Shown here: piece by piece, positions 10,385-27,412 of the stretch
Layout of the letters: every line of letters starts with the position of its first letter
Numbering within the stretch: the stretch's first letter is position 1
Assembly: GCF_000014785.1 (NCBI RefSeq)
Contig: NC_008340.1
Span: forward strand, 2,730,001 to 2,762,000
Reading direction: 5' to 3'
Source: Alkalilimnicola ehrlichii MLHE-1
GTDB taxonomy: Bacteria; Pseudomonadota; Gammaproteobacteria; Nitrococcales; Halorhodospiraceae
Length of the DNA stretch: 32,000 nucleotides
The notes under the pieces: generated by a model
Told to the model about the DNA's origin: nothing
What the model saw: the letters and a program-made list of their open reading frames with translations, nothing else
The model's database searches: none
Translations under genes and position numbers: made by a program

Positions 10385-10629
10385 TTGCCGTCACAGGCAC
10401 CCCGACATGGACTGCCGCGCCCCTGCGGGGGCGCGAATCAGCGAGGAACGGGGCACCCCCGTCATCGCGAGGGCCGAAGGCCCGTGGCGATCCAGAGGGG
10501 TAGACTGCCGCGTCGGCTTCGCCTCCTCGCAGTGACGGTGGGGGTGTCCCTCCCCGCCGTGACGGTGGGGCCCACCACCCCCGTCATCGCGAGGAGCGCA
10601 GCGACGCGGCGATCCAGGCGGCTGCAGAG
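10385..10629. repeat. REP/BIME-like palindromic repeat cluster 1
   Basis: Contains the units CCCCCGTCATCGCGAGGGCCGAAGGCCCGTGGCGATCCA, its convergent partner ...GACTGCCGCGTCGGCTTCGCCTCCTCGCAGTGACGGTGGGGG, and GTCATCGCGAGGAGCGCAGCGACGCGGCGATCCA. It lies between the convergent tesA and rdgC. Confidence 0.9.
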
Positions 10630-11628
10630 CTAGGCGCGAGGCGTGGCGCTACCGGTGATGCCGTCCTCGCTGGCCAGGGTGGCCTCTTCGTCCGGAGACG
10701 AGGGGCGGTCCTCTTCCGCCGGCCCCTGCCGTTCACCACCGAACAGTTCCATCAGCCGCGGGTAGAACCGCTGCAGCTCGAGGCTCATCAGGGAGAAGTC
10801 CACGTCCAGGCGCTCTTCCGGGGTCTCGGCCTCCTCCTCGGCGGCCTGCTCCTGCACCATGTCCAGAAACTTCAGGCGCTTGACCACCAGGCCGGCGTCC
10901 AGCACGCAGGAGAGGCGCTCGCCCCAGGTCAGGGCCAGGGTGCGCACCCGCTTGCCCGCCTGGATGTGGGCGCGCATCTCCTCGGCCACCAGGTCCTGGC
11001 GCTTGACCCGCACCTCGCAGCCCTCGGCGCGGGGGTCCTCCAGCACCGCCTCCTCGCCCAGCTCGACGTCACCGGGGATATCGTCCTCGGCCAGCCAGCG
11101 GGTCATCACCGCCTGCGGGCTTTCCTTCGTCTCCGGCAGGGCCACCGGCAGGGTGCCCAGGGCCTCGCGCAGGTGCTCGACGAAGTCCTCGGCGGCACGG
11201 GCGCTGGCGGTGTCCACCACCAGCCAGCCGTCGCGGGCGTCAATGTAGCCCCAGGTGCGGCGGTGGCGGCTGAAGGCACGGGGCAGCAGGTCGAGGATCA
11301 CCTCCTCCTTGAGCTGGTCCTTCTCGCGCCGGCGCACCTTACGGCTCTCCTTGTGCTCGATCTCGCCGACCTTCTCGTCCAGGGCGTCGCGGATGACCGA
11401 GGCGGGCAGGAGTTTGCTCTCCTCGTGCAGGCAGAGCAGGTGGAAATTGCCGACGGAGTGGGTCAACGGCGCATCCGGCCGGCCCATGGGCGGCACCCAC
11501 CCCACCCGCTGCATCTCGAACCGGGCGGCGGGCTCCCAGGCAAAGGCGGCCAGCGCCTCCTGCAGGCCCTCGGCCGTCTCGCGCAGGGGGGATTGGAGCT
11601 TGTAGAGGGTGAGGTTCTTGAACCACAT
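10630..11628 (-). CDS. rdgC: Recombination-associated protein RdgC
   Basis: The internal ATG at 11628 gives MWFKNLTLYKLQSPL..., the hallmark RdgC N-terminus. Also GWVPPMG, LLPRAFSRHRRT and VKRLKF blocks are collinear with my recollection of E. coli RdgC. The upstream part of the track ORF lies in repeat sequence. Confidence 0.9.
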   Translation of the reverse strand: MWFKNLTLYKLQSPLRETAEGLQEALAAFAWEPAARFEMQRVGWVPPMGRPDAPLTHSVGNFHLLCLHEESKLLPASVIRDALDEKVGEIEHKESRKVRRREKDQLKEEVILDLLPRAFSRHRRTWGYIDARDGWLVVDTASARAAEDFVEHLREALGTLPVALPETKESPQAVMTRWLAEDDIPGDVELGEEAVLEDPRAEGCEVRVKRQDLVAEEMRAHIQAGKRVRTLALTWGERLSCVLDAGLVVKRLKFLDMVQEQAAEEEAETPEERLDVDFSLMSLELQRFYPRLMELFGGERQGPAEEDRPSSPDEEATLASEDGITGSATPRA

Positions 11629-11654
11629 GGCGTGTGCATCCGCTGCGAAGGGAA

Positions 11655-12350
11655 AGCGGGACATTATGCGAGTCGCGCTGCGACGGGACAACCAGGCGTG
11701 GCAATCCAGGCCGGCGGGTGGATCGCCACGTCGCTGCGCTCCTCGCGATGACGGGGGTGGCGCCCCCACCGTCACTGCGAGCGCGGCCCCACCCCCACCG
11801 TCACTGCGAGGAGGCGAAGCCGACGCGGCAGTCTACCGCCCTGGATCGCCACGGGCCTGCGGCCCTCTTGATGAACATGGCCAGACGCTGCGGGCGCCCC
11901 CTACCCTCACTGCGAGCGCGGACCCACCCCCACCGTCACTGCGAGGAGGCGAAGCCGACGTGGCAGTCTACCGCCCTGGATCGCCGCGGGCCTTCGGCCC
12001 TCGCGATGACGGGTGGGGCGCCCCCTCGCGATGACGACCAAAAACCCGCGGCGCTCGCCATGGCAGCTCCGCTGTTCTTCCCTGATTCGGGCCCGCGCAG
12101 CGGGGAGGGGGGCTCGCGATGACCGGGAGTGCCCCGTTCCTCGTTGATTCGGGCCCGCGCAGCGGGAGGGGGGCTCGCGATGACCGGGAGTGCCCCGTTC
12201 CTCGTTGATTCGGGCCCGCGCAGCGGGAGGGGGGCTCGCGATGACGGGGTGGTGACCCCCACCGTCACTGCGAGCCCCGAAGGGGCGCGGCAGTCCAGGC
12301 CGGCGGGTGGATCGCCGCGTCGCTGCGCTCGCGATGACGGGGGTTGGAGG
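11655..12350. repeat. REP/BIME-like repeat cluster 2 (about 0.7 kb, includes a 61-62 bp tandem triplet at 12084-12245)
   Basis: Multiple copies of CCTCGCGATGAC / GTCACTGCGAGG units in both orientations, for example TGGATCGCCACGTCGCTGCGCTCCTCGCGATGACGGGGG. The unit GATTCGGGCCCGCGCAGCGGGAGGGGGGCTCGCGATGACCGGGAGTGCCCCGTTCCTCGTT occurs three times. Confidence 0.9.
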
Positions 12351-12358
12351 CTTGCATT

Positions 12359-12850
12359 TCAGTTCAACCACCAGATGGCGCCATTGAGCACTGCGGCGAA
12401 GGCCACCCACAGCGCGTAAGGCACGAACAGGATGGCGGCCCAGCGATCCACCGGTGCGAATTGCCGGATGCAGGCCAGCAACACCAGAAAGAGCAGACCG
12501 ATCCAGACCAGCGCCGCTCCCGGCGCCTGCAGGCCGAAGAAGATCACCGACCAGCACAGGTTCATCACCAGCTGCAGCCCCCAGAGCGCCAGCACGCCCC
12601 GCCCCTGCACCCAGCCCAGCACCCGCCACAGACGCCAGCCGGCGATGGCAATGGCCAGGTAGAGCGCCGTCCAGACCGGACCGAAGAGCCAGTCCGGGGG
12701 GTTGAACGGTGGCTTGGCCAGGTCGCGATACCAATCGTCCAGGCCGGTGGCGGTCACCGCCCCACCCAGGGAGGAGACCACCAGCACCAGGAACAGGAAG
12801 GCCAGCAGCATCGGGAAGTGGTGCCGGGGATTGGTCTGCATTGGGGTCAT
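12359..12850 (-). CDS. tspO: TspO/MBR family tryptophan-rich sensory protein
   Basis: The internal ATG at 12850 gives MTPMQTNPRHHFPMLLAFLFLVLVVSSLGG. Motifs WYRDLAKPPFNPPDWLFGPVWTALYLAIAIAGWRLW and FVPYALWVAFAAVLNGAIWWLN are diagnostic TspO motifs. There are 5 TM helices in about 163 aa. Confidence 0.9.
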   Translation of the reverse strand: MTPMQTNPRHHFPMLLAFLFLVLVVSSLGGAVTATGLDDWYRDLAKPPFNPPDWLFGPVWTALYLAIAIAGWRLWRVLGWVQGRGVLALWGLQLVMNLCWSVIFFGLQAPGAALVWIGLLFLVLLACIRQFAPVDRWAAILFVPYALWVAFAAVLNGAIWWLN

Positions 12851-12892
12851 AGTCCGTTGCTTCAGGATTGCCTCGAAAATACCAGACCGGGG

Positions 12893-13506
12893 CGTGGATC
12901 GCCGCGTCGCTGCGAAAGCCGACCCGTCCCCCACCGTCATTGCGAGGGCCGCAGGCCCCGTGGTGACCCAGGGCGGTAGACTGCCACGTCGGCTTCGCCT
13001 CCTCGCAGTGACGGTGGGGGCGACCTGCCGCTTCCGGCTCAGTCAAGTTCTTCAAGAGGGCCGAAGGCTTTCCCCCGTCGTCGCGAGGGCCGAAGGCCCG
13101 TGGCGATCCAGGGCGGTAGACTGCCACGTCGGCTTCGCCTCCTCGCAGTGACGGTGGGGGCGACCTGCCGCTTCCGGCTCAGTCAAGTTCTTCAAGAGGG
13201 CCGAAGGCTTTCCCCCGTCGTCGCGAGGGCCGAAGGCCCGTGGCGATCCAGGGCGGTAGACTGCCACGTCGCTTCGCTCCTCGCAGTAACGGTGGGGGCC
13301 ACTACCACCCCGTCATCGCGAGGAGCGCAGCGACGCGGCGATCCAGACGCCGGCATGGACTGCCACGCCCCTTCGGGGCTCGCAGTGACGGTGGGGATGG
13401 GACCGCGCTCGCAGTGACGGTGGGGATGGGACCGCGCTCGCAGTGACGGCGGGGGTGGCCCGCCCCTTGGCTGCACAGTCCAGTTCTTCAAGAGCCGCGC
13501 GATGAC
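12893..13506. repeat. REP/BIME-like repeat cluster 3 (includes a perfect 140-bp tandem duplication at 12971-13250 and a 31-bp tandem at about 13378-13445)
   Basis: 12971-13110 and 13111-13250 are identical by direct reading. A diverged partial third copy follows from 13251. The same unit types as the other clusters are present. It lies between the divergent tspO and fumA. Confidence 0.95.
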
Positions 13507-13556
13507 AGCCCAAGGCCCGCCAACACCATGTTGCCACGGACAAAACCCGCCGGCTG

Positions 13557-13565
13557 TGGTATAAC
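13557..13565 (+). promoter_or_regulatory. Candidate extended -10 element (TGgTATAAC) for the fumarase gene
   Basis: TGGTATAAC lies about 59 nt upstream of the ATG at 13624. No good -35 is present at 17 bp (TTGCCA lies 23 nt upstream). Confidence 0.3.
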
Positions 13566-13623
13566 CTGCCGCGCGAACACCCGACGCACAGACGACTATA
13601 AAGACACGCCCCGGAGGACGCCC

Positions 13624-15141
13624 ATGGCTACCATCCGCCAGGATGACTTCATCCAGAGCATCGCCGATGCGCTGCAGTATATCTCCTACTACCACCCCAA
13701 GGACTTCATCGACGCCGCCCACGAGGCCTGGGAGCGGGAGGAATCGCCGGCCGCCAAGGATGCCCTGGCGCAGATCCTGATCAACTCGCGCATGTGCGCC
13801 GAGGGCCGCCGGCCCATCTGCCAGGATACCGGCATCGTCACGGTGATCCTCAAGATCGGCATGAACGTCCAGTGGGACGCCGAGATGAGTGTGGAGGACA
13901 TGGTCAACGAGGGCGTGCGCCGGGCCTACAACCTGCCCGACAACAAGCTGCGCGCCTCCATCCTGGCCGACCCGGCCGGCGAGCGGAAGAACACCGGCGA
14001 CAACACCCCGGCGGTGATCCACATGAGCCTGGTACCGGGGGACACCGTGGACGTGCAGGTGGCGGCCAAGGGGGGCGGCTCCGAGGCCAAGACCAAGTTC
14101 GCCATGCTCAACCCCTCCGACTCCATCGTCGACTGGGTACTGGAACAGGTGCCGAAGATGGGCGCCGGCTGGTGCCCGCCGGGCATCCTGGGCATCGGCA
14201 TCGGCGGTACCGCGGACAAGGCGATGCTGATGGCCAAGGAGGCCTGCATGGAGTCCATCGACATCCACGAGCTGAAGGCCCGCGGCCCACGGAACACCGC
14301 CGAGGAACTGCGTCTGGAGCTGTTCGACAAGGTCAACGAGCTGGGCATCGGCGCCCAGGGCCTGGGCGGGCTGACCACGGTGCTGGATATCAAGATCCGC
14401 GACTACCCCACCCACGCGGCCAACAAGCCCGTGGCGATGATCCCCAACTGCGCGGCCACCCGCCACGCCCACTTCGTGCTGGACGGCTCCGGGGTGGCGG
14501 ACCTGCCGGCGCCCAAGCTGGAGGATTGGCCGCAGGTGGCCCGCGAGGGCGGCGGCGACGTCAAGCGGGTCAACCTCGACGAGGTGACCACCGAGGAGGC
14601 GCGAAGCTGGAAGCCGGGTGACACCCTGCTGGTCTCCGGCACCATCCTCACCGGCCGCGATGCCGCCCACAAGCGCATGACCGACATGCTGAGCCGGGGA
14701 GAAGAGCTGCCGGTGGACCTGAAGGGCAAGTTCATCTACTACGTGGGCCCGGTGGACCCGGTGCGCGACGAGCCCGTGGGCCCGGCCGGCCCCACCACCG
14801 CCACCCGGATGGACAAGTTCACCGATCAGATGCTGGCCGAGACCGGCCTGATGGGCATGATCGGCAAGGCCGAGCGCGGCCCCGAGGCGGTGGCGGCCAT
14901 CCGTAAGCACGGCGCGGTCTACCTGATCGCCGTGGGCGGTGCCGCCTACCTGGTCTCCAAGGCCATCCGCAAGGCCCGGGTGGTGGCCTTCGAGGACCTG
15001 GGCATGGAGGCCATCCACGAATTTGAGGTGGAGGACATGCCGGTGACGGTGGCGGTGGACAGCCGTGGCGAATCGGTGCACGAAGCCGGCCCCCGCGAGT
15101 GGCAGGCCCGGATCAAGGGCATCCCCGTCACCGAGGCCTGA
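13624..15141 (+). CDS. fumA: Class I (Fe-S dependent) fumarate hydratase
   Basis: The ATG at 13624 is preceded by GGAGGA. MATIRQDDFIQSIADALQYISYYHPKDFI..., the CQDTGIV cluster-ligand motif, GGGSEAKTKF, PPGILGIGIGGTADKA, and the C-terminal beta-domain GTILTGRDAAHKRM...YYVGP. 505 aa, matching the single-polypeptide class I enzymes. Confidence 0.95.
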   Translation: MATIRQDDFIQSIADALQYISYYHPKDFIDAAHEAWEREESPAAKDALAQILINSRMCAEGRRPICQDTGIVTVILKIGMNVQWDAEMSVEDMVNEGVRRAYNLPDNKLRASILADPAGERKNTGDNTPAVIHMSLVPGDTVDVQVAAKGGGSEAKTKFAMLNPSDSIVDWVLEQVPKMGAGWCPPGILGIGIGGTADKAMLMAKEACMESIDIHELKARGPRNTAEELRLELFDKVNELGIGAQGLGGLTTVLDIKIRDYPTHAANKPVAMIPNCAATRHAHFVLDGSGVADLPAPKLEDWPQVAREGGGDVKRVNLDEVTTEEARSWKPGDTLLVSGTILTGRDAAHKRMTDMLSRGEELPVDLKGKFIYYVGPVDPVRDEPVGPAGPTTATRMDKFTDQMLAETGLMGMIGKAERGPEAVAAIRKHGAVYLIAVGGAAYLVSKAIRKARVVAFEDLGMEAIHEFEVEDMPVTVAVDSRGESVHEAGPREWQARIKGIPVTEA

Positions 15142-15146
15142 GTGCG

Positions 15147-15171
15147 TGCCGCCCGGCACGACCGGGCGGCA
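15147..15171 (+). terminator. Hairpin just after the fumarase stop (candidate terminator, weak U-tract)
   Basis: TGCCGCCCGG-cacga-CCGGGCGGCA, a perfect 10-bp stem starting 6 nt after the stop. It is followed by TCCGCCTTCC. Confidence 0.45.
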
Positions 15172-15282
15172 TCCGCCTTCCCCCTGCGGCCCCGCTCGGA
15201 GCCGATGATGGACATTTGCCCTGGATCAAGCTTTCCGGCACTGCTATAGGTGTCATTGACGCTCAGCGCCGATTACAGGGGA

Positions 15283-16080
15283 ATGGCCATGACCGACACA
15301 CCCTCACCGCCGCGGCCGCCGGAGGAGCTGCCCATGCTGGCGCCGTGCCACGACGTCGCGGCCGACGCCCCCTTGCGCTGGATGCAGCGCGGCTGGGCGG
15401 ATCTGCGGGCGGCACCCCGCCAGAGCCTGCTCTTCGGGGTGATGACGGTGGTGCTGAGCTACCTGGTCACCGCAGCCACCTGGGTGTACGGCAACATCGG
15501 GCTCTACCTCGGTCTGGTCTCCGGGTTCGTGTTCGTGGCACCGTTGTTGGCGCTCACCGTGTACGCCATCAGCCTGCAGCTCGAGCGGGGGCGCCCCCCG
15601 TCCCTGCGGCGCAGCCTGCGCAGTGCCGTGCAGTCGCTGCGGGGTGCGATGTTCTTCGCCGTGATCCTGGTGATAGTGCTGCTGGTCTGGGCGCGGGCGG
15701 CGAATACCCTGTACATCTTCTTCCCTGACACCGCCGACCCGGCCCTCGCCGATCTAGTGCTCTTTCTGGGCATCGGCAGCGTGGTGGGGGCGCTGTTCAG
15801 TCTGGTGGTCTTCGCGGCCAGCGCCTTTTCGCTGCCGATGCTGGTGGAGCGCCGAACCGACGCCATCACCGCGGTGGTGACCAGCGTCAACGCGGTGCTG
15901 CGGAACAAGCGGACCATGCTGGTCTGGGCGCTGATGATCGCCGCCTGCGTGGCGGTGGCCATCGTCACCGCCTGGCTGGCCTTTGTGGTGCTGATGCCGC
16001 TGCTGGGGCACGCCACCTGGCACGCCTACCGCGAGACCATCGACGCCTCGGAGTGGCCGTTGCTGGAGCAGGAGGCGTAG
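15283..16080 (+). CDS. DUF2189-like integral membrane protein
   Basis: The ATG at 15283 follows AGGGGA. The N-terminal pattern APLRWMQRGWADLRAAPRQSLLFGVMTVVLSYL, followed by several TM helices, matches my recollection of the DUF2189 family. The function is unknown. Confidence 0.65.
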   Translation: MAMTDTPSPPRPPEELPMLAPCHDVAADAPLRWMQRGWADLRAAPRQSLLFGVMTVVLSYLVTAATWVYGNIGLYLGLVSGFVFVAPLLALTVYAISLQLERGRPPSLRRSLRSAVQSLRGAMFFAVILVIVLLVWARAANTLYIFFPDTADPALADLVLFLGIGSVVGALFSLVVFAASAFSLPMLVERRTDAITAVVTSVNAVLRNKRTMLVWALMIAACVAVAIVTAWLAFVVLMPLLGHATWHAYRETIDASEWPLLEQEA

Positions 16081-16095
16081 GGCGGCACCAGGTCA

Positions 16096-16290
16096 ACCGT
16101 CACCGCGAGGTTTGGAGCGCCGCGGCGATCCACACACCGGCATGGACTGCCGCGCCCCCTGCGGGGGCTCGCAGTGACGTGGTGGGGGCATTCCACCGTC
16201 ATCGCGAGGGCCGGAGGCCCGTGGCGATCCAGGGCGGTGGACTGCCGCGTCGCTTCGCTCCTCGCAGTGACGGTGGGGGCGGACTGCCGG
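16096..16290. repeat. REP/BIME-like repeat cluster 4
   Basis: GTCACCGCGAGG...GGCGATCCACACACCGGCATGGACTGCCGCGCCCCCTGCGGGGGCTCGCAGTGAC and GTCATCGCGAGGGCCGGAGGCCCGTGGCGATCCAGGGCGGTGGACTGCCGCGTCGCTTCGCTCCTCGCAGTGACGGTGGGGG. It lies between convergent genes. Confidence 0.9.
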
Positions 16291-16291
16291 C

Positions 16292-18144: not shown

Positions 18145-18172
18145 GCGGCCCGGGCACCGCCGATCAATTAGG

Positions 18173-19511: not shown

Positions 19512-19890
19512 CACCGTCATCGCGAGCCCCCCTCCCCGCTGCGCGGGCCCGAATCAACGAGGAACGGGGCACCCCCGTCATTGCCAGGGCCGAAGGCTTT
19601 CCCCCCGTCATCGCGAGGGCCGAAGGCCCGTGGCGATCCAGGGCTGTAGACTGCCGCGTCGGCTTCGCCTCCTCGCAGTGACGGTGGGGGGGTAGCCCTT
19701 CCCGCCGTGACGGTGGGGGCGCCACCCCGTCATCGCGAGGAGCGCAGCGACGTGGCGATCCACACGCCGGCATGGACTGCCGCGCCCCTTCGGGGCTCGC
19801 AGTGACGGTGGGGCGGGTCGCCGCTTGCCGTGACGGTGGGGCGGGCCGCCGGCCGCCGTGACGGTGGGGCGGGTCGCCGTGACGGAGTGG
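19512..19890. repeat. REP/BIME-like repeat cluster 5
   Basis: GTCATCGCGAGCCCCCCTCCCCGCTGCGCGGGCCCGAATCAACGAGGAACGGGGCACCCCCGTCATTGCC..., the full composite GTCATCGCGAGGGCCGAAGGCCCGTGGCGATCCAGGGCTGTAGACTGCCGCGTCGGCTTCGCCTCCTCGCAGTGACGGTGGGGG, and then 3-4 short CCGTGACGGTGGGGCGGG reiterations. Confidence 0.9.
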
Positions 19891-19925: not shown

Positions 19926-20426
19926 CTAGTTAGTGAGTATAATCCCCACGCCGAATCTGACACGCGGGGCGGTACGCTCGGCCTCCACTGCACGTGGCCA
20001 CAGGTGGAGATCATCGGGCACCACCCGGGGGTAGCGATAAGCGGCCTCACCAATGCGGCCGTCCACCACCTCGTCCACCTGTCCCTGCACGGTCAGGCTG
20101 CGACCGGGGGCGTAGTCGGCCGTCTCCAGGTACCCCGGGTGCTCGACCAGGAATCGCCCCCGGGGGGGTTGCCCGGTGCGGGGCCGCTGGCTGCGGTCCA
20201 GGGGATAGGCGAGCACCTCCAGGCGCGTGCGATCCTCCAGGTTCTCACTGGCGACAATGACCCCGCCCCAGACCACCGGCTGGTCCACGTGGTCGGGGGC
20301 ATCGGCAGCCAGCCGTTGGGGCGTCAGGTCAGGATCAACCTGAGCGGTGTCGTAGCGGGGGCCGGTGGCACAGGCGGCAAGCGCCAGGGCCAGCAACACC
20401 ACGAGTAGTGCTCGCGAAACGGTCAT
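19926..20426 (-). CDS. Slp-family outer-membrane lipoprotein (paralog 1)
   Basis: The ATG at 20426 gives MTVSRALLVVLLALALAAC (lipobox). VVWGGVIVASENLEDRTRLEVLAYPLD....P......RGRFLV.HPGYLE.ADYAPGR.LTV.G is the Slp family pattern. Confidence 0.8.
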   Translation of the reverse strand: MTVSRALLVVLLALALAACATGPRYDTAQVDPDLTPQRLAADAPDHVDQPVVWGGVIVASENLEDRTRLEVLAYPLDRSQRPRTGQPPRGRFLVEHPGYLETADYAPGRSLTVQGQVDEVVDGRIGEAAYRYPRVVPDDLHLWPRAVEAERTAPRVRFGVGIILTN

Positions 20427-20437
20427 GCGCACGGGCT

Positions 20438-20983: not shown

Positions 20984-21027
20984 AGCGCACCTCCGTGGCC
21001 CTTGGACCGCCCCGGCACCACTGCGGT

Positions 21028-21660: not shown

Positions 21661-21760
21661 GGGGCCTCCTGGTCGGTGAATGGGACGGGACTATCGGCCA
21701 AGATACCGCAACCGGCCGGCTTGTGAAGCACCGGCCACCTCCCTCGGCTGGGCCGCCCCC

Positions 21761-22525
21761 TCAGGCCAGGTGATGGCCGGGCAGGCCTTCCAAGTGCTGG
21801 CGCACCTCATCCCAGAGGGCCTCGTAGGCACGGGCCGCCGGGCTGGTGGGGGCGAAGTCGCAGACCGGCCGTTGGTGCAGGCCCATCTGCTCAACCTGGG
21901 TGCTGTAGGGGATGGCCGGGCCAAGCAGCCGCTTCATGTTCAATGGCGGCTGCTCCACCAGTTGCCGGTGCATTCCCCTCCGGCGGTCCACCATTGACCA
22001 GAAGGGCACCAGCTTGCGCCGCGGAAGCTCGTGCTGTTTGAAAAACGCGCGCAGCTGTGCCCAGGCCCGCAGCGACAACGGTGTCGGCACCAGCGGCACC
22101 AGCACCCGGCTGGCGGCACGGAAGACGTTCTCCGACAGGCGGGAGAAGCTGGGCGGGCAGTCGAGCACCGCAAGGGCGTAGCGCTCCGAGAGCGGTTCCA
22201 GAAGCTGGTGGAGCCGGTCGTCCCCGCCCTTCTCGTCCAGGTGGAGATCCAGGTGGCGGTAGCGCTCGTCCGCTGGCAGCAGCTGCAGGTTGTCCCAGGC
22301 GGTGTCGCACAGCTCGCGGCCGATGGGGCGCTTGCCGCTGAGCAGCTTGCGGGGCTTGCCTTGGAGCCCCTCCTCCACCCCCAGGTACCAGCTCGCCGCT
22401 CCCTGCGCGTCCAGGTCCCAGAACACCGTGGGCAGCCCGTCGCGGGCGGCGAGCCAGGCCAGGTTGACGGCGGCGGCGGTCTTGCCGACGCCCCCCTTCA
22501 GGTTGTAAAAGGCGATAACTTCCAA
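21761..22525 (-). CDS. Orphan ParA/MinD-family P-loop ATPase
   Basis: Deviant Walker A with the signature lysine: IAFYNLKGGVGKTAAAVNLA. Walker A' FWDLDAQGAAS. Walker B ALAVLDCPPS. A TTG start at 22525 is inferred from GGAGGA 6 nt upstream (ggaggatctTTGgaagttatc). The longer track ORF (to 22621) overlaps the CHAD gene and adds a Gly/Arg/Pro-rich N-terminus. Confidence 0.85.
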   Translation of the reverse strand: MEVIAFYNLKGGVGKTAAAVNLAWLAARDGLPTVFWDLDAQGAASWYLGVEEGLQGKPRKLLSGKRPIGRELCDTAWDNLQLLPADERYRHLDLHLDEKGGDDRLHQLLEPLSERYALAVLDCPPSFSRLSENVFRAASRVLVPLVPTPLSLRAWAQLRAFFKQHELPRRKLVPFWSMVDRRRGMHRQLVEQPPLNMKRLLGPAIPYSTQVEQMGLHQRPVCDFAPTSPAARAYEALWDEVRQHLEGLPGHHLA

Positions 22526-22572
22526 AGATCCTCCAGGGCACACACCCCCGCAAGGGGGCGCTACCGAATGGT

Positions 22573-23496
22573 TCAGACGGTGCCGCCCTCGTGGCCCAGC
22601 TCCTCGCGCCAGACCTCCCACCAGGCCCGGAGACGGCGCGACAGGGCGCCCGGGCGGTCGGCGTACAGGCGCCGGCCCAGGCGCAGGGCGGGCAGGCGCA
22701 GCTCGTCGTGGCGTTGGGCGATCATGCCGCGGATCAGGCGCCGGTGGACCTCGCCGACATGACCGGGTTCGTCCACCAGGAGCTGGTCCAATACCTGTAG
22801 ATCGTGATCGTCACCGAGCAGATCGGAGAGGGTCTTCAGTTCCGATTGCAGGGTCTTCATCAGCGGTGACCAGAGCAGACGCAGCACCTGCACATGGTAC
22901 CAGTAGTCCTTCACCCGCTTGCGCCATTCGTGCCAGGCCTCCGGGTCGTCGCTGAACCGGCTGGCCTGGAATGCCTGACCGCCGGCCTGATAACAGCGCT
23001 GGAAACCGGCCAGAAAGGCATCCGCCCCCTCGGCCTTCGATGGCCAGTCGGCGATGCGTTCGCGGGCGCCGTGCAGCTCGTCGACCAGGTTCGCCATCTG
23101 CCCGGCCAGGTCCCCCTCCTCCGCGGCCAGTCGGTCGCGGCGAACCTCAAGGGCCCGCTGACAGGCCCCCAGCGCCTCCTGTTGGGTGGGCAGCCGGAAC
23201 CGCTCGCTCAGGGCATCCACCGTTTCCAGCACTGCCTGGGCGTCGCGATAGCCGGACAGGGCGCGGGCCTGGTCCCGATACCAGGCGTTCTCCGCCTGCG
23301 CCCGCTTGCGCCCCAGCGTCGGGCGGAATAGCCGGAGCAGGGCGCGCAGCTCCTTGAAGCGCTTGCGCGCCTGGTGCACCGCCTCGTGGGGATCGCCACC
23401 GCCCTGCAACACCTCAATGGCCGCATCCACCCGGCCCCGGGCCAGCTTGCGGATGTCCGCAGCGAGCGCCCTGCGTCCTTCCAGCCGGAATGCCAT
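22573..23496 (-). CDS. CHAD-domain protein
   Basis: 307 aa and all-helical. VHQARKRFKELRALLRLFRP...YRDAQV and later WHEWRKRVKDYWYHVQVL...LGDDHDLQVL are the conserved His/Arg-rich CHAD repeats. Confidence 0.85.
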   Translation of the reverse strand: MAFRLEGRRALAADIRKLARGRVDAAIEVLQGGGDPHEAVHQARKRFKELRALLRLFRPTLGRKRAQAENAWYRDQARALSGYRDAQAVLETVDALSERFRLPTQQEALGACQRALEVRRDRLAAEEGDLAGQMANLVDELHGARERIADWPSKAEGADAFLAGFQRCYQAGGQAFQASRFSDDPEAWHEWRKRVKDYWYHVQVLRLLWSPLMKTLQSELKTLSDLLGDDHDLQVLDQLLVDEPGHVGEVHRRLIRGMIAQRHDELRLPALRLGRRLYADRPGALSRRLRAWWEVWREELGHEGGTV

Positions 23497-23530
23497 GTCC
23501 CTCTCCAGTGTCTTCCTGACCTCAGGGTAC

Positions 23531-23562
23531 CTTATATAATAATGGAATTAATCATAGTCCAA
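23531..23562 (-). promoter_or_regulatory. Candidate sigma70 promoter for the CHAD/ParA-like genes in a local AT-rich patch
   Basis: On the minus strand: TTGGAC (23562-23557), 18-nt spacer, TATATA(A) (23538-23533). It lies about 35 nt upstream of the CHAD ATG, which has a GGAGAGGG Shine-Dalgarno. This is the only AT-rich stretch in that intergenic region. Confidence 0.35.
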
Positions 23563-23611
23563 CACGGGGTTTTGCTGCAGAACGGCAACCGGGCCGGCCG
23601 CCACGGAGCGG

Positions 23612-25567
23612 TCAACCCAACGCGGCCTCGGCCGCCTCCAACGCCTCCAGGGCCTCCATCCAGTCCGCCTCCAAGGCCTCCTGGCGGGCCTTGAGCACCC
23701 CCTGCCGGTGCAGCAGTTCGGTCAGGCGGTCCTTGCCCGCTGCCTCGTACAAAGCGGGCTCACCCAGGGCCCTCTCCACGTCAGCCAGCTCCCCGCTCAG
23801 TTCATCCAGCGCCTTCTCCAACTGCTCGGCCTTGCGACGCAACGGGCGAAGCTGCTCGCGTTGCCGCGCCTGGGCGCGGCGCTGGGCCTTGCGCGATTCA
23901 GCCGTGTGCGCCGGGGAGGACCCGTGCCGCGGTTCGTCGCCATCAGGCGCGGGCCCGGTCCCGGCAGAGGCGACGCCGTTGACGGCCTTCTGCGCCTCGC
24001 GCCATTCGAGGAACCACTGGCGGTAGGTCTCCAGGTCGCCGTCCAGCGGGCGGACGCGGCCCTCGGCCACCAGGTAGTACTCATCGCAGGTGGTGGTGAG
24101 CAGGTGACGGTCGTGGGAGACGAGGACCACGGCGCCTTCGTATTCCTGCAAGGCGACGGTCAGGGCGTGGCGCATCTCCAGGTCCAGGTGGTTGGTGGGC
24201 TCGTCCAACAGCAACAGGTTGGGCCGCTGCCAGACCAGCAGTGCCAGCACCAGGCGGGCCTTTTCACCACCGCTGAAGGGGGCCACGGCACGGTCCGCAT
24301 CGTCGCCGGAGAAGCCGAAACCGCCGATAAAGTTGCGCAGGGTCTGTTCCTGCGCCTTCGGGGCCAGGCGCTGCAGGTGCAGCAGCGGCGAGGCCTGGCC
24401 ATCCAGTTGCTCCAGTTGATGCTGGGCGAAGTAGCCCACGGCCAGCCCCTGACTGCCGGTGATCTGGCCCGCCTGGGGTTTCAACTCGCCGGCCAGGGCG
24501 CGGATGAAGGTGGACTTGCCGGCCCCGTTCGGTCCCAGCAGGCCCATCCGCTCCCCCGGGCGCAGCGAGAGCTGAATCCGGCGCAGGACCGGGTCACCGC
24601 CATAGCCCAAATCCACCCGGTCGAGCACCAGCAGCGGGTTGGCGGCCCGGGGCGGGTCGGGGAAGTGGAACTCGAAGGGCGCGTCCACGTGCGCCGGGGC
24701 GATGCGCTCCATCCGCTCCAGCGCCTTGATACGGCTCTGCGCCGCCTTGGCCTTGTTGGCCTGGGCGCGGAAGCGGTCGATGAATTTGTGCAGATGGGCA
24801 ATCTCCGCCTGCTGCTTCTCGTACTGGGCCTGCTGTTGCGCCAGGCGCTCGGCGCGGCGCTTTTCGAAGTCGCTGTAGCCGCCCGTATAGTGCACCAGCC
24901 GCCGGCCATCGAAGTGGACGATGCCCTGGACCACGGTGTCGAGGAAGTCGCGGTCGTGGGAGATGAGCAGCAGCGCCCCCGGGTACTGGCAGAGCCACTG
25001 CTCCAGCCAGAGCACAGCCTCCAGGTCCAGGTGGTTGGTGGGCTCGTCCAACAGCAGCAGGTCGGAGGGCTGGATGAGCGCGCGGGCCAGGTTGAGGCGC
25101 ATGCGCCAGCCGCCGGAGAAATCGCTCACCGGCCGGGCCCGCCCGGCGGCGTCAAAACCCAGCCCCTCCAGCAGGGTCTCCGCCCGGGAGGCGGCGGTGT
25201 AGCCGTCGATGGCGTCCAGGCGGGCGTGCAGTTGCCCCATGGCCTCGCCGTCGCCCGCCGCTTCCGCCTCGGCCAGCCGCGCCTGGAGTGCTCGCAGCTC
25301 CAGGTGGCCATCCAGCACGTAGTCCAGGGCGCTGCTGGCCAGCGCCGGGGTCTCCTGGACCACATGGGCGATACGCCAATCACGGGGGATGCCCACCTCG
25401 CCGGCGTCCGGGCCGATCTCGCCCTGCAGCAGGGCGAACAGGGTGCTCTTGCCGCAGCCGTTGGGACCGACCAGGCCGAGGCGCTGCCCCGGGTAGACGG
25501 TGAGACTGGCCTGGTGGAGGAGTTCCTCGGGGCCGCGGGAAAGGGTGATGTCCTTGAGGGTGATCAT
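23612..25567 (-). CDS. yheS: ABC-F family ATPase YheS (tandem ABC domains, coiled-coil C-terminal tail)
   Basis: The internal ATG at 25567 gives MITLKDITLSRG. GPNGCGKSTLF, VSDFSGGWRMRLNLARAL, LLLLDEPTNHLD, the linker RIKALERMERIAPAHVD, the second domain GPNGAGKSTFI, FSGGEKARLVLALLVWQRPNLLLLDEPTNHLD, and VSHDRHLL. It is collinear with my recollection of E. coli YheS throughout. Confidence 0.9.
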   Translation of the reverse strand: MITLKDITLSRGPEELLHQASLTVYPGQRLGLVGPNGCGKSTLFALLQGEIGPDAGEVGIPRDWRIAHVVQETPALASSALDYVLDGHLELRALQARLAEAEAAGDGEAMGQLHARLDAIDGYTAASRAETLLEGLGFDAAGRARPVSDFSGGWRMRLNLARALIQPSDLLLLDEPTNHLDLEAVLWLEQWLCQYPGALLLISHDRDFLDTVVQGIVHFDGRRLVHYTGGYSDFEKRRAERLAQQQAQYEKQQAEIAHLHKFIDRFRAQANKAKAAQSRIKALERMERIAPAHVDAPFEFHFPDPPRAANPLLVLDRVDLGYGGDPVLRRIQLSLRPGERMGLLGPNGAGKSTFIRALAGELKPQAGQITGSQGLAVGYFAQHQLEQLDGQASPLLHLQRLAPKAQEQTLRNFIGGFGFSGDDADRAVAPFSGGEKARLVLALLVWQRPNLLLLDEPTNHLDLEMRHALTVALQEYEGAVVLVSHDRHLLTTTCDEYYLVAEGRVRPLDGDLETYRQWFLEWREAQKAVNGVASAGTGPAPDGDEPRHGSSPAHTAESRKAQRRAQARQREQLRPLRRKAEQLEKALDELSGELADVERALGEPALYEAAGKDRLTELLHRQGVLKARQEALEADWMEALEALEAAEAALG

Positions 25568-25912
25568 GGCTGGGATTCTACCAGCCGATGGTGCCAAGGC
25601 GTCAGGGCGATGCCCCAGGCGGATGCGCACGCAAACCCCGTCGCGGCGACCCTGTGCCACAGCCCTTGGGGTTCACTCACGCACCAATATACGCCACCAA
25701 ACGCAGCGAACACCAAACCATTGCTGCCCCGTGCAACCCCTATATTTGGAATGCACACAATACGTCGCCACCCCCCGGAACAGGGCTGCGCAATACATTG
25801 ATTTTATGGAGGTGGCATTATCCTGGAGCAGAATGATCAGGAATAACCAGGTCCTACTAGCTCGGTCTTTTTTACCATTTCGTAACAGAAAAGACATCGT
25901 TTCTAACCACCC

Positions 25913-25928
25913 GTTACCGCACGGTAAC
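25913..25928. promoter_or_regulatory. Perfect palindrome GTTACCG-CA-CGGTAAC, a candidate upstream activator site
   Basis: 7+7 bp inverted repeat centred about 64 nt upstream of the -24 GG of the putative sigma54 promoter. A weaker TTAC-N6-GTAA sharing the half-site lies at 25872-25885. Confidence 0.3.
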
Positions 25929-25982
25929 AACGGCCCGACCGGGCGGTGCCCAAGCGACTACTTAGGCAGGGCTTTTTCTGTT

Positions 25983-25998
25983 TGGCATTGCATTTGCT
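25983..25998 (+). promoter_or_regulatory. Putative sigma54 (-24/-12) promoter TGGCAT-N5-TTGCT
   Basis: The sequence TGGCATtgcatTTGCTT has GG and GC separated exactly as in the consensus TGGCAC-N5-TTGCW. It lies about 46 nt upstream of the ATG at 26044, which has an AGGAG Shine-Dalgarno at 26031-26035. It sits in an unusually AT-rich 380-bp intergenic region. Confidence 0.6.
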
Positions 25999-26043
25999 TA
26001 AACCCCTCACCGAAAACCGCCGATTCGGCTAGGAGATCCGGTA

Positions 26044-27153
26044 ATGAGTAGCGATAGCACAGTGATTCCAAGAGATACCAATAGCGGCTGGGCCGCGGAA
26101 CGGGCTCGCCGCGGCGGCAGGCAGCGCCACTCCAAGTGGTGGCTGCTCGCCGTCATCGTCTCAGTGACGCTAAGCCTTCCGCTCAGCGGCTACCTGGCGC
26201 CGGCGGCCGCCAGCCAAGGCGCGGATCTGGCGGGGTTCTATCCTGAGAGCCAGATCAGCTACAGCTGGTCGTCGCTACGCGAAGGGCCCCTCACGATCTT
26301 CGCCCTACTGGCCATCGCCGGGTCGATACTCGTCTTTCTCGCGTTCCATCTGTTCGCCGGCAAGGTAAGGATTGACGGCGGCCGGTCCGGCACCACCGTG
26401 CCGAGGTGGAGCAGGTTCGAGCGCCTTCTGCACTGGCTGCTCGCCGGCTCGTTCATCGTGCTGGCGATCACCGGCCTATCGCTGTTCTTCGGTCGGTACG
26501 CGCTGATGCCCTTGCTGGGGGAGAGGGGTTTCTCCACCTACGCCTCGGGGGCGATCTGGATTCATGAAACCATCGGGCTGGTATTCGTGGCCCTCCTGGT
26601 CGCCGCCATCCTGCAGTGGATAAAGGGCAACCTTTTCCGGAGCTACGACTGGCAATGGTTCAAGCAGGGCGGCGGCTATATCGGCGATCGCAACACCCAC
26701 CCGCCGGCAGGGAAGGCGAACGGCGGCGAAAAGCTCTACTTCTGGCTCGGCATCGTTAGCATGGGGTCGGTCACAGCGATCACCGGTCTCGTACTCTACT
26801 TCACCACTTGGACCGGATCGGAGGGCTTGGTCGCCTGGTCGTTGATTTTCCATGTGCTCGGCGCCGCAGGATTCATCGCCCTGGCGATCGGCCATGTCTA
26901 CCTGGGTGCCATCGGCAATGAAGGGACGCTGGAGGGCATGGTGAGCGGCCGGGTGGACTGCAACTGGGCGAAACAGCACCACAACATCTGGTACGAAGAG
27001 ATCCTCCAGGACGGCGTGCAGCCGGAGCCCGCGAGCACGTCTGCGGCAGACGCCTCCGTGCCGAGCGCAAAGAGTTCGAAGTCCACGGCAACCGACGCCG
27101 CGTCATTGACGATTCGGACCGACGATGCGCCGGCGCGTCGCCCTTTGTCTTGA
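26044..27153 (+). CDS. FdnI-type (formate-dehydrogenase-gamma-like, PF01292-type) di-haem cytochrome b membrane subunit with an N-terminal extension
   Basis: The core aligns with my recollection of E. coli FdnI. RFERLLHWLLAGSFIVLAITGL, IWIHETIGLVF, GKANGGEKLYFWLGIVSMGSVTAITGLVLYF, and IFHVLGAAGFIALAIGHVYLGAIGNEGTLEGMVSGRVDCNWAKQHHNIWYEEI. All four haem-ligand His positions are present. There is also a predicted signal peptide (WWLLAVIVSVTLSLPLSGYLAPAAA/SQ), one additional TM helix, and a Ser/Ala/Thr-rich tail of about 50 aa. Confidence 0.85.
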   Translation: MSSDSTVIPRDTNSGWAAERARRGGRQRHSKWWLLAVIVSVTLSLPLSGYLAPAAASQGADLAGFYPESQISYSWSSLREGPLTIFALLAIAGSILVFLAFHLFAGKVRIDGGRSGTTVPRWSRFERLLHWLLAGSFIVLAITGLSLFFGRYALMPLLGERGFSTYASGAIWIHETIGLVFVALLVAAILQWIKGNLFRSYDWQWFKQGGGYIGDRNTHPPAGKANGGEKLYFWLGIVSMGSVTAITGLVLYFTTWTGSEGLVAWSLIFHVLGAAGFIALAIGHVYLGAIGNEGTLEGMVSGRVDCNWAKQHHNIWYEEILQDGVQPEPASTSAADASVPSAKSSKSTATDAASLTIRTDDAPARRPLS

Positions 27154-27203
27154 GCCGAGCGCCCCGGGAAGTCCCCTGTGGCCGTAGGCTATTGAATGAG
27201 TTT

Positions 27204-27412
27204 GTTGCGAGCCCCCTCCCCGCTGCGCGGGCCCGAATCAACGAGGAACGGGGTACCCCTGTCATCGCGAGGGCCGAAGGCCCGTGGCGATCCAGGGCGG
27301 TAGACTGCCGCGTCGGCTTCGCCTCCTCGCAGTGACGGTGGGGGTGGGGCCCCGCTCGCAGTGACGGTGGGGGCAACCTTCCGCTTCCGGCACAGTCCAG
27401 TTCTTCAAGAGG
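27204..27412. repeat. REP/BIME-like repeat cluster 6, inside the molybdoenzyme operon
   Basis: GCGAGCCCCCTCCCCGCTGCGCGGGCCCGAATCAACGAGGAACGGGGTACCCCTGTCATCGCGAGGGCCGAAGGCCCGTGGCGATCCAGGGCGGTAGACTGCCGCGTCGGCTTCGCCTCCTCGCAGTGACGGTGGGGG..., followed by the CCGCTTCCGGCACAGTCCAGTTCTTCAAGAGG module, which ends at the Shine-Dalgarno of the next gene. Confidence 0.9.

Follow-up and report, generated by a model that had tools for sequence, protein, structure and literature searches.

Clusters of bipartite hairpin repeats in Alkalilimnicola ehrlichii probably belong to the CGTC-tagged REP superfamily

The window analysed here, a 32,000-nt stretch of the Alkalilimnicola ehrlichii MLHE-1 genome (NC_008340.1, positions 2,730,001 to 2,762,000), holds six repeat clusters, all of them intergenic in the public annotation of this part of the genome. 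A sequence-only reading had described them as a modular, palindromic, BIME-like family restricted to intergenic DNA, and this observation is confirmed. A mismatch-tolerant scan of the window recovered 26 full a or b units, two c modules and four d modules, i.e. all four unit types of that reading, in the six regions it had named, with further c copies lying inside a 61-nt array; the phantom peptides it had quoted are present in the ORF translations with one or two residues different. The 11-nt arm GTCAYYGCGAG occurs in 33 copies over both strands, against 0.09 ± 0.29 expected from 100 dinucleotide-preserving shuffles, and all 33 lie within the six clusters. A repeat search returned direct families with six to eight copies and, between clusters, inverted pairs of 113–134 nt with 89–96% complementarity. 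The clusters and their parts are as follows, with the strand where one applies.

10405–10616: cluster 1, between a convergent tesA-like gene and rdgC
10405–10460: b-short remnant joined to the right half of module c
10461–10494, plus strand: a-short
10501–10536, minus strand: b-long
10583–10616, plus strand: a-long, after a G-rich linker
11695–12338: cluster 2, between the rdgC start and the tspO stop
11719–11752, minus strand: a-long
11771 and 12025: solo b arms
11800–11875 and 11935–12010: two b-long/a-short doublets, 135-nt direct repeat
12083–12249, minus strand: module c tandem array with GTCATCGCGAG arm, period 61 nt, 2.7 copies, 98% matches
12264–12338: b-short/a-long doublet
12895–13494: cluster 3, in the divergent tspO/fumA spacer
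12934–13299, plus strand: tandem array of a-short (plus), b-long (minus), linker and module d
13312–13389: a-long/b-short doublet
13378–13458: 29-nt solo b arm array
13476–13494: module d
16099–16271: cluster 4, between convergent DUF2189 and HDOD genes
16099–16178: doublet of an a-long variant and a b-short variant
16198–16271: doublet of a-short and a 34-nt b-long
19516–19879: cluster 5, downstream of slp, upstream of an isochorismatase gene
19516–19575: arm and module c
19577–19606: degenerate unit
19607–19682: a-short/b-long doublet
19729–19806, plus strand: reference type-2 doublet (a-long/b-short)
19795–19879: 28-nt solo arm array
27206–27411: cluster 6, directly upstream of the ribosome-binding site of a molybdopterin oxidoreductase gene; its other neighbour is a 369-aa ORF (26044–27153)
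27206–27259: module c
27261–27336, plus strand: reference type-1 doublet (a-short/b-long)
27355–27365: solo b arm
27393–27411: module d

Short-read contigs from the same organism begin within the module d of cluster 6.

Read on the strand showing 5'-CGTCA-3', the 26 full units share one layout, in which an unpaired CGTC or TGTC tag is followed by a 5-bp outer stem, GAG, an inner hairpin with a GNA triloop, the 3' stem arm and a CCA or CTA tail, an internal loop separating the two stems. Units are 34–36 nt long, and their outer stem is ATCGC or ACTGC (starting AT in a units and AC...GT in b units). The doublets, about 76 nt long, consist of two different units placed tail to tail, every one being a convergent a/b pair with a spacer fixed at 6 or 10 nt. 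The type-1 doublet at 27261–27336 reads, 5' to 3', GTCATCGCGAG-GGCCGAAGGCC-CGTGGCGATCCA, the spacer GGGCGG and the reverse complement of GTCACTGCGAGGAGGCGAAGCCGACGCGGCAGTCTA, with tags outward and tails inward. In the type-2 doublet, a and b exchange their long and short interiors: the a-long unit (GAGGAGCGCAGCGACG interior) is followed by the 10-nt spacer CACGCCGGCA and the reverse complement of b-short (GCCCCGAAGGGGC interior), and this region (19729–19806) shares 97% identity with 13305–13396. Tandem arrays in the clusters have periods of 140, 61 and 28–29 nt. The 140-nt array at 12934–13299 (2.6 copies, 96% matches, 99% identity copy versus copy) is a whole doublet with linker and module d, locally amplified.

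The case for a hairpin rests on covariation and not on folding energy. Single units did not fold significantly better than shuffled sequences of the same G+C content (z from -0.7 to -1.7, with one at +0.6), and doublets did so modestly (z -1.6 to -2.2). When both stem arms were left free in the search pattern, 210 of 218 units from other organisms were fully Watson-Crick paired; 27 of the 218 differ from ATTGC/GCAAT, 19 of them through double compensatory changes. For the inner stem, all eight possible G/C versions occur among 124 short-type units, 123 of which are perfectly complementary. Both stems thus covary, and the structure is selected.

The units are not private to this genome. The same a/b doublet was found in soda-lake metagenome contigs, and a betaproteobacterial MAG carries an a/b doublet with the long and short interiors on opposite units. 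AT-richer versions are spread over megaplasmids, phage contigs and genomes whose labels cover at least seven phyla; a degenerate 33-mer gave at least 120 matches in the genome collection, again with labels from at least seven phyla, and picked out 92 stretches of viral contigs. When translated, the consensus matches 52 database entries annotated as 'hypothetical proteins' (50–104 aa; Bradyrhizobium, a Spirochaetaceae MAG, metagenomes). The peptides of 'LAMT / ARNDG' flavour that the sequence-only reading had associated with unrelated bacteria come from a very widespread relative of the units. Between close strains, where that reading had proposed comparing the same intergenic regions, unit content differs: in a related strain (L337, RdgC 95% identical) the tspO-rdgC spacer is devoid of units and two neighbouring sites hold different ones. 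In another relative (L339) the spacer syntenic to cluster 1 is 68 nt long and contains no units, and none were found in the syntenic DNA of relatives with RdgC identity of 70% or lower. Once present, the units multiply locally, through tandem duplication and unit-unit recombination, which yields BIME-like mosaics and fast turnover between strains.

Could the clusters have arisen through local events only, slippage and unequal recombination having amplified a handful of hairpin units within this 17-kb region, with neither a dedicated enzyme nor a genome-wide family in this organism? The tandem arrays of 140, 135, 61 and 28–29 nt point that way, the window-specific phantom peptides have a single database match, and 10 kb on the left and 8 kb on the right of the window are free of clusters; the clusters span 17 kb of the 50-kb stretch examined, which leaves room for such amplification. 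Slippage alone is nevertheless insufficient, because conserved genes separate the six clusters and near-identical doublets recur in either orientation over distances of up to 17 kb. The soda-lake doublet and its interior-swapped betaproteobacterial form, together with units at the same and at different sites in a related strain, also speak against this explanation, which we regard as unlikely.

A second alternative holds that the units are functional RNA elements selected for a host role, whether they terminate transcription, stabilise mRNA 3' ends or act as small RNAs. Of the six clusters, four follow at least one gene; both stems covary, and 3'-end hairpins can protect transcripts, a role proposed for REPs generally (PMC3733652). 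However, the units match no Rfam family at the gathering or E-value threshold, they have no T tail, and none of five terminator-like sites falls in the clusters. They occur in both orientations, one cluster sits in a divergent promoter spacer, and their content is wholly different between strains with 95% identical flanking proteins; moreover, the nuclease SsnA shows no binding to its repeat in RNA form (PMC11893778). Side effects on transcripts are possible, but an RNA function as the explanation of the clusters appears quite improbable.

The sequence-only reading had suggested a RAYT-like mobiliser, i.e. GTAG-type REP/REPIN elements moved by a RAYT (Y1 HUH transposase) encoded elsewhere. The doublet architecture resembles that of REPINs and BIMEs, on the opposite strand GTAG immediately precedes the ACTGC stem in the eight 36-nt b-long units (as GTGG does in several others), and a RAYT, typically single-copy, might sit beyond the 50 kb examined. 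Yet the widespread relatives have CTGG at that position and not GT[AG]G, and the basal stems measure 5 bp, whereas RAYT-associated REPs are defined with 7–20 bp. A RAYT/TIRYT HMM, built from 29 sequences and recovering left-out members at E 1e-22 to 1e-41, had no match in the window, in agreement with the earlier statement that it contains no RAYT or IS200-like gene, nor in 1.72 and 0.70 Mb (2.4 Mb) around more than 340 units, a zero that is modest evidence because about three matches are expected even with one flanked RAYT per genome. Di Nocera et al. (PMC3733652) likewise report no tyrosine transposase gene with CGTC repeat flanks. The enzyme family actually found between doublets is a different one, GIY-YIG, and the RAYT proposal is not supported and appears very unlikely.

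Genes of this GIY-YIG family (Pfam PF01541) lie 0–55 nt from units in seven of 120 metagenome loci, all seven coming from the short-type pattern scan; among 212 loci fetched with the long-type pattern, none was ssn-adjacent. Where both flanks were present, doublets stood on either side of the gene (5/5). The encoded proteins are single-domain Ssn homologues of 94–98 aa, 53–61% identical to a gonococcal Ssn-type homologue whose own gene has NTS repeats on its flanks, and Y6, Y17 and E64, the residues mutated in Chenal 2025 (PMC11893778), are invariant in all seven aligned sequences. The window's a/b units are present in one of the seven loci, L273, where an ssn gene is flanked by the window's type-1 doublet with one to three substitutions per unit and a 12-nt spacer, and where the protein is 61% identical to the gonococcal homologue over 93 residues (E 1e-43); L262, like L273, carries the window's own a/b doublet. 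In the reverse test, ssn homologues from named plasmids and chromosomes had CGTC-tagged hairpins of local type on both sides in five of six cases, the flanks of the sixth (S. meliloti) being direct copies of a CGTC-containing element. The window itself, together with 10 kb on its left and 8 kb on its right, contains neither an ssn gene nor a remnant of one.

SsnA is known to bind its repeat as ssDNA only, on one strand only, and to cut a few nucleotides upstream; the C that follows the palindrome matters most for binding, and the 3 nt preceding the palindrome matter most for cutting (PMC11893778). These positions are conserved in the window's units. An association of related repeats with the nuclease has already been published (PMC11893778), and the spreading of repeats by Ssn proteins still stands in the literature as a hypothesis only. 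As judged from gene neighbourhood and sequence, the likely partner of the units is a small GIY-YIG ssDNA nuclease and not a RAYT.

MITEs derived from a DDE-transposase insertion sequence, with the GTCAYYGCGAG arms as terminal inverted repeats, can be all but discarded: the doublets of 67–138 nt do have 12-nt perfect terminal inverted repeats, but target-site duplications of 2–8 nt are no commoner at 199 doublets than with shuffled partners, the only gene families recurring beside units are phage structural genes in viral contigs, ORFs between inverted arms are mutually unrelated except for the GIY-YIG genes, and the compensatory changes by which each half keeps its own fold would be superfluous in terminal inverted repeats.

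Taken together, we propose that the clusters probably represent a branch of the CGTC-tagged REP superfamily that is rich in G+C and specific to its lineage; the hairpin repeats of this kind now go by the name of Ssn-related motifs (SRMs). In units from other organisms C or T precedes GTC in 205 of 218 cases and a CCA tail follows in 145 of 218; tag, CCA tail, AT-starting a-unit stem and predominance of inverted dimers are features of CGTC REPs. Membership in the SRM class rests on shared tag, tail and context and not on the published definition, since the SRM search pattern, which matches control units, misses every unit of the window and all 828 arm-defined units. When DNA is single-stranded, during replication or repair or as incoming DNA, the hairpin would be exposed to a small Ssn-family nuclease encoded elsewhere in the genome, which would bind it with the conserved GTC before and C after and nick a few nt 5' of the tag. 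A doublet-flanked ssn gene may represent an autonomous-looking form, of which the window's doublets would be non-autonomous copies. The earlier interpretation is thus partly supported: of its own counter-hypothesis, an already named REP/BIME family with a described RAYT in this taxon, half holds, the units falling in a named superfamily with a described partner enzyme (CGTC REPs, PMC3733652; SRMs, PMC11893778), while the literature searched describes neither this unit class nor this taxon.

The CGTC superfamily, as set out by Di Nocera, De Gregorio and Rocco (2013, BMC Genomics 14:522; PMC3733652), comprises families CGTC-1 to CGTC-4 and takes in the Neisseria dRS3 and Rickettsia RPE-4 and RPE-6 repeats; A. 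ehrlichii is not among the genomes analysed there. Like these REPs, the window's units have an unpaired CGTC/TGTC end tag, an AT-starting stem (a units) and a 3-nt CCA tail, are intergenic, form predominantly inverted dimers, often heterodimers, and have no linked tyrosine transposase. CGTC-1 to -4 are described with uninterrupted 8–9 bp stems and 4–5 nt loops, whereas the 34–36 nt units of the window have two stems, an outer one of 5 bp and, beyond an internal loop, another closed by a GNA triloop. Further differences are that b units begin AC...GT instead of AT, that large clusters are described as rare among CGTC repeats, and that none of the peptide signatures in Additional file 3 corresponds to the window's unit class. 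This superfamily corresponds to the hairpin repeats, NTS and SRMs, that flank the Ssn family of GIY-YIG single-strand nucleases (Chenal et al. 2025, Nat Commun 16:2388; PMC11893778). Shared with NTS/SRMs are the oriented hairpin with conserved GTC upstream and C downstream of the palindrome, a repeat-ssn-repeat cassette that exists for the window's unit class too, and, in the homologues from the metagenome loci, the single domain and the catalytic residues of Ssn. Unlike SRMs, the units escape the published pattern (0/828), have no ssn gene in the window or its flanks, and form bipartite hairpins with two different stems per doublet, nuclease specificity here being putative; for the role of Ssn in Neisseria, where it restricts how much transforming DNA is integrated, no counterpart is known in A. 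ehrlichii. From E. coli BIMEs and Pseudomonas REPINs the clusters differ in the CGTC instead of GTAG tag, in sequence family and in a candidate enzyme that is GIY-YIG and not HUH-Y1, no RAYT having been found. What they share is the architecture, with inverted REP units of two alternating types, conserved linkers and doublets as the units of mosaic clusters, and a presumed mode of recognition, in which, as with RAYT (TnpA-REP), an ssDNA hairpin with a short tag would be recognised by a small trans-acting nuclease.

The modular palindromic repeat family that the sequence-only reading had described in this window is real. The window contains 33 copies of its 11-nt arm, GTCAYYGCGAG, where shuffles predict 0.09; none of them lies beyond six clusters, and all six are intergenic according to the public gene calls for the same stretch of genome. 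The clusters are distributed as follows:

10405-10616, cluster 1, spacer between convergent tesA-like and rdgC genes
11695-12338, cluster 2, spacer between rdgC and tspO
12895-13494, cluster 3, spacer between divergent tspO and fumA
16099-16271, cluster 4, spacer between convergent genes for a DUF2189 and an HDOD protein
19516-19879, cluster 5, spacer between slp and an isochorismatase gene
27206-27411, cluster 6, spacer between a 369-aa ORF (26044-27153) and a Tat-signal molybdopterin oxidoreductase gene

Repeat finding returned families of 6-8 copies in the window; it also linked clusters as distant as 15 kb from one another through inverted matches of 113-134 nt at 89-96%. Complete units numbered 26 in a mismatch-tolerant scan of the window, which also placed two copies of module c and four of module d (c and d being extra modules defined by the same reading). 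The flanking DNA, 10 kb on the left and 8 kb on the right, contains neither clusters nor units. The recurrent phantom peptides that had been read from the repeats are present in ORF translations, with one- or two-residue differences; a protein search with a phantom ORF of the window, meant to locate further loci in this genome, returned one match only. The G+C content along the window is 61-73%. Two other features of the window deserve mention. An 81-nt direct repeat (24176-24256 and 25019-25099, 78% identity, 843 nt spacing) lies within one long ORF, resembles the paired homologous nucleotide-binding domains of an ABC-F-type ATPase and bears no relation to the repeat family. ARAGORN called a 93-nt tRNA-Glu (CTC) at 1635-1727 on the minus strand, opposite to the enclosing TPR/YfiO-like coding region; this call is probably a false positive, and Rfam showed no tRNA in the window.

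Read on the strand starting CGTCA, each unit opens with a (C/T)GTC tag and a 5-nt arm; GAG leads into an inner hairpin, RYG leads out of it, and the complementary arm is followed by a CCA or CTA tail. All units of the window begin with (C/T)GTCA. Two hairpin types are distinguished by their stems: the a units read ATCGC...GCGAT-CCA, and the b units, in which the second stem position is a C-G pair, read ACTGC...GCAGT followed by CCA or CTA. In the resulting geometry, the arms form an outer stem of 5 bp, GAG and RYG face each other as an internal loop, and beyond them an inner stem (2-5 bp) is capped by a GNA loop of 3 nt, the G-N-A being present on the CGTCA strand in every intact copy of the window. 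The inner hairpin is either short (GGGCC-GAA-GGCCC or GCCCC-GAA-GGGGC) or long (GAGCG-CAG-CGAC or GAGGCGAAGCCGAC), and a search pattern for the whole class would be, for example, YGTCAYYGCGAG N(8-20) GCRRTCY. From the 26 full units, 12 convergent doublets were obtained, always of one a and one b unit with the tails facing each other and the tags outermost, separated by a spacer of 6 nt when a-short is paired with b-long and of 10 nt when a-long is paired with b-short. Two further a/b doublets, made of variant units, were recognized by eye at 12936-13012 and 16099-16178. The remainder of the clusters consists of G-rich linkers, solo arms and modules c and d. Local amplification is evident from several arrays, one of 140 nt with 2.6 copies at 96%, one of module c (61 nt, 2.7 copies, 98%) and others of solo arms (28-29 nt), and from a direct repeat of 135 nt. 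Folding energies of single units were unimpressive for G+C-rich DNA (z from -0.7 to -1.7, with one at +0.6); those of doublets gave z from -1.6 to -2.2.

The content of these spacers differs between close strains, as revealed by the comparison of intergenic regions that the sequence-only reading had proposed. In a strain with a 95% identical RdgC (L337), the tspO-rdgC spacer is devoid of units, and different units are found upstream of tspO and downstream of rdgC. By eye, the place of cluster 2 is taken in this strain by an apparent C-terminal remnant of a HipA-type toxin gene (L337:640-1200, minus strand; ...HAKNFSLFLRPGG...). Upstream of rdgC, the minus strand of the window resembles a promoter at 11663-11691 (TTGTCC, 17 nt, CATAAT), and the -35 hexamer of this site marks the point where conservation with L337 resumes and the cluster ends. 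Relatives with 57-70% identical RdgC had no units; two of them are syntenic at the rdgC-lipase junction. In a relative (L342:1632-1910), the syntenic rdgC/lipase spacer of 279 nt contains an unrelated palindromic element: an arm of about 30 nt (GCCGCAGATTAACGCGGATGGACGCAGATG) faces an imperfect inverted version of itself across the length of the spacer. Logan short-read contigs of the organism and of a close relative (L002, L215, L216, L337) end in a-long units, module d or doublets, and the repeats do limit assembly contiguity.

Related units were sought elsewhere with patterns that left both stem arms free to vary independently. The first, GTCAYYGCGAGGAGCGNAGCGACGNNGCRRTCC, was derived from the a-long unit of the window and an AT-richer form. 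It returned 92 stretches in viral contigs and at least 120 matches in a one-genome-per-species collection, covering at least seven phyla by genome label; since many of the matched genomes are MAGs, single taxon assignments may be wrong, the wide spread not being in doubt. The genome matches listed include Bradyrhizobium, many other Alphaproteobacteria, Limnohabitans, Azoarcus, Solimonas and Halofilum, as well as Opitutaceae, an Armatimonadetes MAG, Clostridia, Oscillospiraceae, Treponema, Spirochaetaceae, Anaerolineae and Rikenellaceae, with a locus G+C of 35-74%. A second pattern, for short units, gave at least 120 matches in metagenomes. By BLAST, the doublet turned up in Methylosinus, Methylocystis and Novosphingobium megaplasmids, one Novosphingobium record having it in at least 40 places, and all these sites lie within unannotated DNA. 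It was rare in deposited phages. In viral contigs (L003-L094), the unit class sits between structural genes (terminase, P22-type portal, capsid and tail tube), and a median of 45 nt separates unit and portal gene in 13 viral loci. These contigs are apparently genuine phage genomes, and phages could carry the repeats between hosts.

The related loci contain 214 doublets, and outside the window, too, a long unit usually converges with a short one to make up the doublet, at a median length of 82 nt. The outer stem is fully Watson-Crick in 210 of 218 non-redundant related units. Deviations from ATTGC/GCAAT concern 27 units: double compensatory changes account for 19 of them, a T·G pair for 6 and a C·A mismatch for 2. 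For the inner stem, all eight of the eight possible G/C versions were seen, and complementarity is perfect in 123 of 124 units. These compensatory changes in outer and inner stems indicate, at the level of sequence, that the hairpins are under selection. Among the 218 related units, GTC is preceded by C in 138 cases and by T in 67, and the CCA tail is present in 145. In Clostridia-like contigs (viral and genome loci such as L010, L040, L088 and L190), the partner of the ATTGC unit differs in stem and interior (GTCATTCCGAGCCAGTGCGCACACTGGCGTGGGAATCC). Because ATTGC is there paired with a different stem, two-stem doublets are general and not special to A. ehrlichii.

What mobilizes such units? 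A RAYT-like enzyme had been tentatively suggested by the sequence-only reading. RAYTs are usually single-copy genes. The 29 RAYT/TIRYT sequences in Additional file 5 of the 2013 survey of CGTC REPs (PMC3733652) served to train an HMM, which recovered left-out members at E-values of 1e-22 to 1e-41. It had no match in the window, nor in the 1.72 Mb and 0.70 Mb around more than 340 units (window, flanks and loci of other organisms). This null result is modest evidence alone, because about three matches would be expected even with one gene per genome. The units themselves also depart from GTAG REPs and REPINs: their basal stem is only 5 bp against the fully paired 7-20 bp of the definition, which places the tag 0-2 nt 5' of the hairpin, and no RAYT gene with such repeats at its sides was found in the DNA searched (window, flanks and other organisms' loci). 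GTAG or GTGG does occur on the opposite strand of b-long and some other units; at the GTAG position, CTGG is found in most a-short units and in related units elsewhere. The sequence-only observation is confirmed; its RAYT interpretation is not supported in the DNA searched. A MITE of a DDE insertion sequence would end in inverted repeats with a target-site duplication outside them; direct repeats of 2-8 nt beside 199 doublets were no commoner than with shuffled partners. Tag covariation between doublet halves did not exceed expectation. An all-against-all BLAST of the ORFs from 212 loci found only phage structural proteins of viral contigs to recur, and the genes enclosed by inverted arms were mutually unrelated, with the exception of GIY-YIG genes. 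Rfam returned nothing relevant, either at the gathering threshold (window and 14 related loci) or at the E-value threshold (10300-13700). As for intrinsic terminators, none of five terminator-like sites lay inside a cluster.

The small GIY-YIG ORFs surfaced in the scan for genes enclosed by inverted arms, and an HMM built from them identified seven genes among the 120 short-type loci listed, the distance to a unit being 0-55 nt. Five of these loci have both flanks present (L233, L255, L257, L267 and L273), and in every one of the five the gene has doublets on either side. The encoded nucleases are single-domain GIY-YIG proteins, 53-61% identical to a gonococcal homologue of Ssn type (small ssDNA nuclease) that itself lies between NTS repeats; the aligned proteins all share Y6, Y17 and E64. 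In the soda-lake metagenome locus L273, ssn lies between doublets matching the type-1 doublet of the window (a-short with b-long, as at 27261-27336), with 1-3 substitutions per unit; its nuclease had no exact match in the protein collection. Neither an ssn gene nor a remnant was found in the window, in the 10 kb to its left or in the 8 kb to its right.

The reverse test, a tblastn search of plasmid records, yielded 32 records with ssn homologues, including Neisseria, Sinorhizobium, Rhizobium, Shinella, Novosphingobium, Sphingobium and Azospirillum; the 2013 survey lists several of these ssn-positive genera as CGTC-repeat hosts (PMC3733652). In five of six fetched regions, CGTC-tagged hairpins of the type seen locally stand at either side of the ssn homologue, and in the sixth, on S. 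meliloti pSymB, it lies between direct copies of a different CGTC-containing element. In A. lipoferum, the ssn homologue and its two flanking CGTC-1 doublets are located between sufB and sufC. In Additional file 1 of the 2013 survey, only two dimers were counted on the 648-kb replicon bearing this sufB-ssn-sufC cassette (PMC3733652), and these two may be the pair flanking ssn. Three loci (L233:3030-3500, and L267 and L255 in reverse) carry a doublet-ssn-doublet arrangement at the 5' end of one common host gene (product MKLGRLNHIGVATPSI...), L233 and L267 being assigned to Erythrobacteraceae (Erythrobacter/Qipengyuania) by exact protein match. The first 22 nt of this host gene (ATGAAACTCGGCCGTCTCAACC) are duplicated, abutting the left doublet and recurring downstream of the right one, and the ssn start codon is an ATG inside the terminal ...GCAATGACG of the unit. 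A duplication of this 22-nt type is absent at ordinary doublets.

The association between GIY-YIG proteins and repeats is itself already published (Chenal 2025, PMC11893778). In that study, SsnA of N. meningitidis, a 94-aa cd10448 GIY-YIG protein, binds the NTS repeat (CGTCATTCCCGCGMAVGCGGGAATCYRG) solely as ssDNA and solely on one strand, and cuts a few nucleotides upstream of the repeat; the C after the palindrome matters most for binding, and cutting depends on the 3 nt that precede the palindrome. Ssn-related motifs (SRMs) were reported near 71% of Ssn homologues and on both sides in 42%, and the repeat-ssn-repeat unit was likened, as an idea, to an insertion sequence (PMC11893778). That Ssn proteins spread the repeats is a hypothesis. 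The published SRM pattern, HGTCWYN(0-2)YYVSBRHN(0-5)WNVSBRGN(0-2)RNCYNB (PMC11893778), had no match in the window and matched none of 828 arm-defined units of the fetched loci, yet it does match control units (NTS, A. lipoferum, Rhizobium and Shinella); we therefore regard the unit class as an unrecognized variant of a known system. Our literature searches for the unit sequence on either strand and for the phantom peptides returned nothing beyond primer coincidences, and no paper was found on repeats or RAYTs in Alkalilimnicola. The genus goes unmentioned in the supplement to the 2010 RAYT paper by Nunvar, and neither RepRanger (2025) nor a 2018 HuH phylogenomics paper treats the family.

On this basis we tentatively propose, with slightly less than even confidence, that the GCGAG units are a separate and very widespread Ssn recognition class (5-bp stem, internal loop and GNA hairpin) missed by the SRM definition, and, as part of the same proposal, that this class is nearly base-identical across genomes of 35-74% G+C and at least seven labelled phyla, and also in phage genomes. 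If so, the obligatory use of two different stems per doublet (ATCGC plus ACTGC in this window, ATTGC plus ATTCC in Clostridia-like contigs) would mean a dual-specificity nuclease or two co-resident nucleases. The class would also add new site specificities to a nuclease family proposed as ssDNA tools, and would supply the partner enzyme that the 2013 survey failed to find for CGTC repeats.

Elements of this kind are known: CGTC REPs were catalogued in 2013 and tied to GIY-YIG Ssn nucleases in 2025. According to the 2013 survey (Di Nocera 2013, PMC3733652), CGTC REPs have an unpaired CGTC tag at one end of the stem-loop (TGTC or CCTC being tolerated), A-T pairs at stem positions 1 and 2, so that the stem starts with AT, and a 3-nt tail, mostly CCA. 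The superfamily takes in Neisseria dRS3 and Rickettsia RPEs, occurs mainly as inverted dimers and 'apparently lacks a dedicated transposase'; its families CGTC-1 to CGTC-4 have an 8-9 bp stem and a 4-5 nt loop. Measured against these published descriptions, all window units carry the tag; the a units share tag, AT stem start and tail, whereas the b units share tag and tail but have a stem starting with AC. Inverted dimers prevail here as well, and no Y1 transposase matches were found in 2.4 Mb. The geometry differs from that of the four families, with a 5-bp stem, an internal loop and a GNA hairpin, which sets the units outside all four as described, and none of the repeat-encoded peptides in the survey corresponds to the unit class. 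With respect to the Ssn system, the window units do not conform to the published motif, but ssn genes flanked on both sides by units of this class do exist in other loci, though not inside the window, and what the window units conserve, namely the 3 nt ahead of the palindrome and the C behind it, are the positions that proved critical in Neisseria. The element is a structural variant of the CGTC-REP/SRM kind not previously recognized. It does not overturn current understanding; it adds a unit class that lies outside the four CGTC families and the SRM pattern, yet surrounds ssn genes and occurs in many phyla, megaplasmids and phages, so that surveys relying on the published pattern will under-count Ssn-associated repeats. 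For annotation and assembly, such units yield recurrent spurious 'hypothetical proteins' and break short-read assemblies. The system is also extended to a haloalkaliphilic gammaproteobacterium, where the units form unusually large BIME-like mosaics that vary among close strains.
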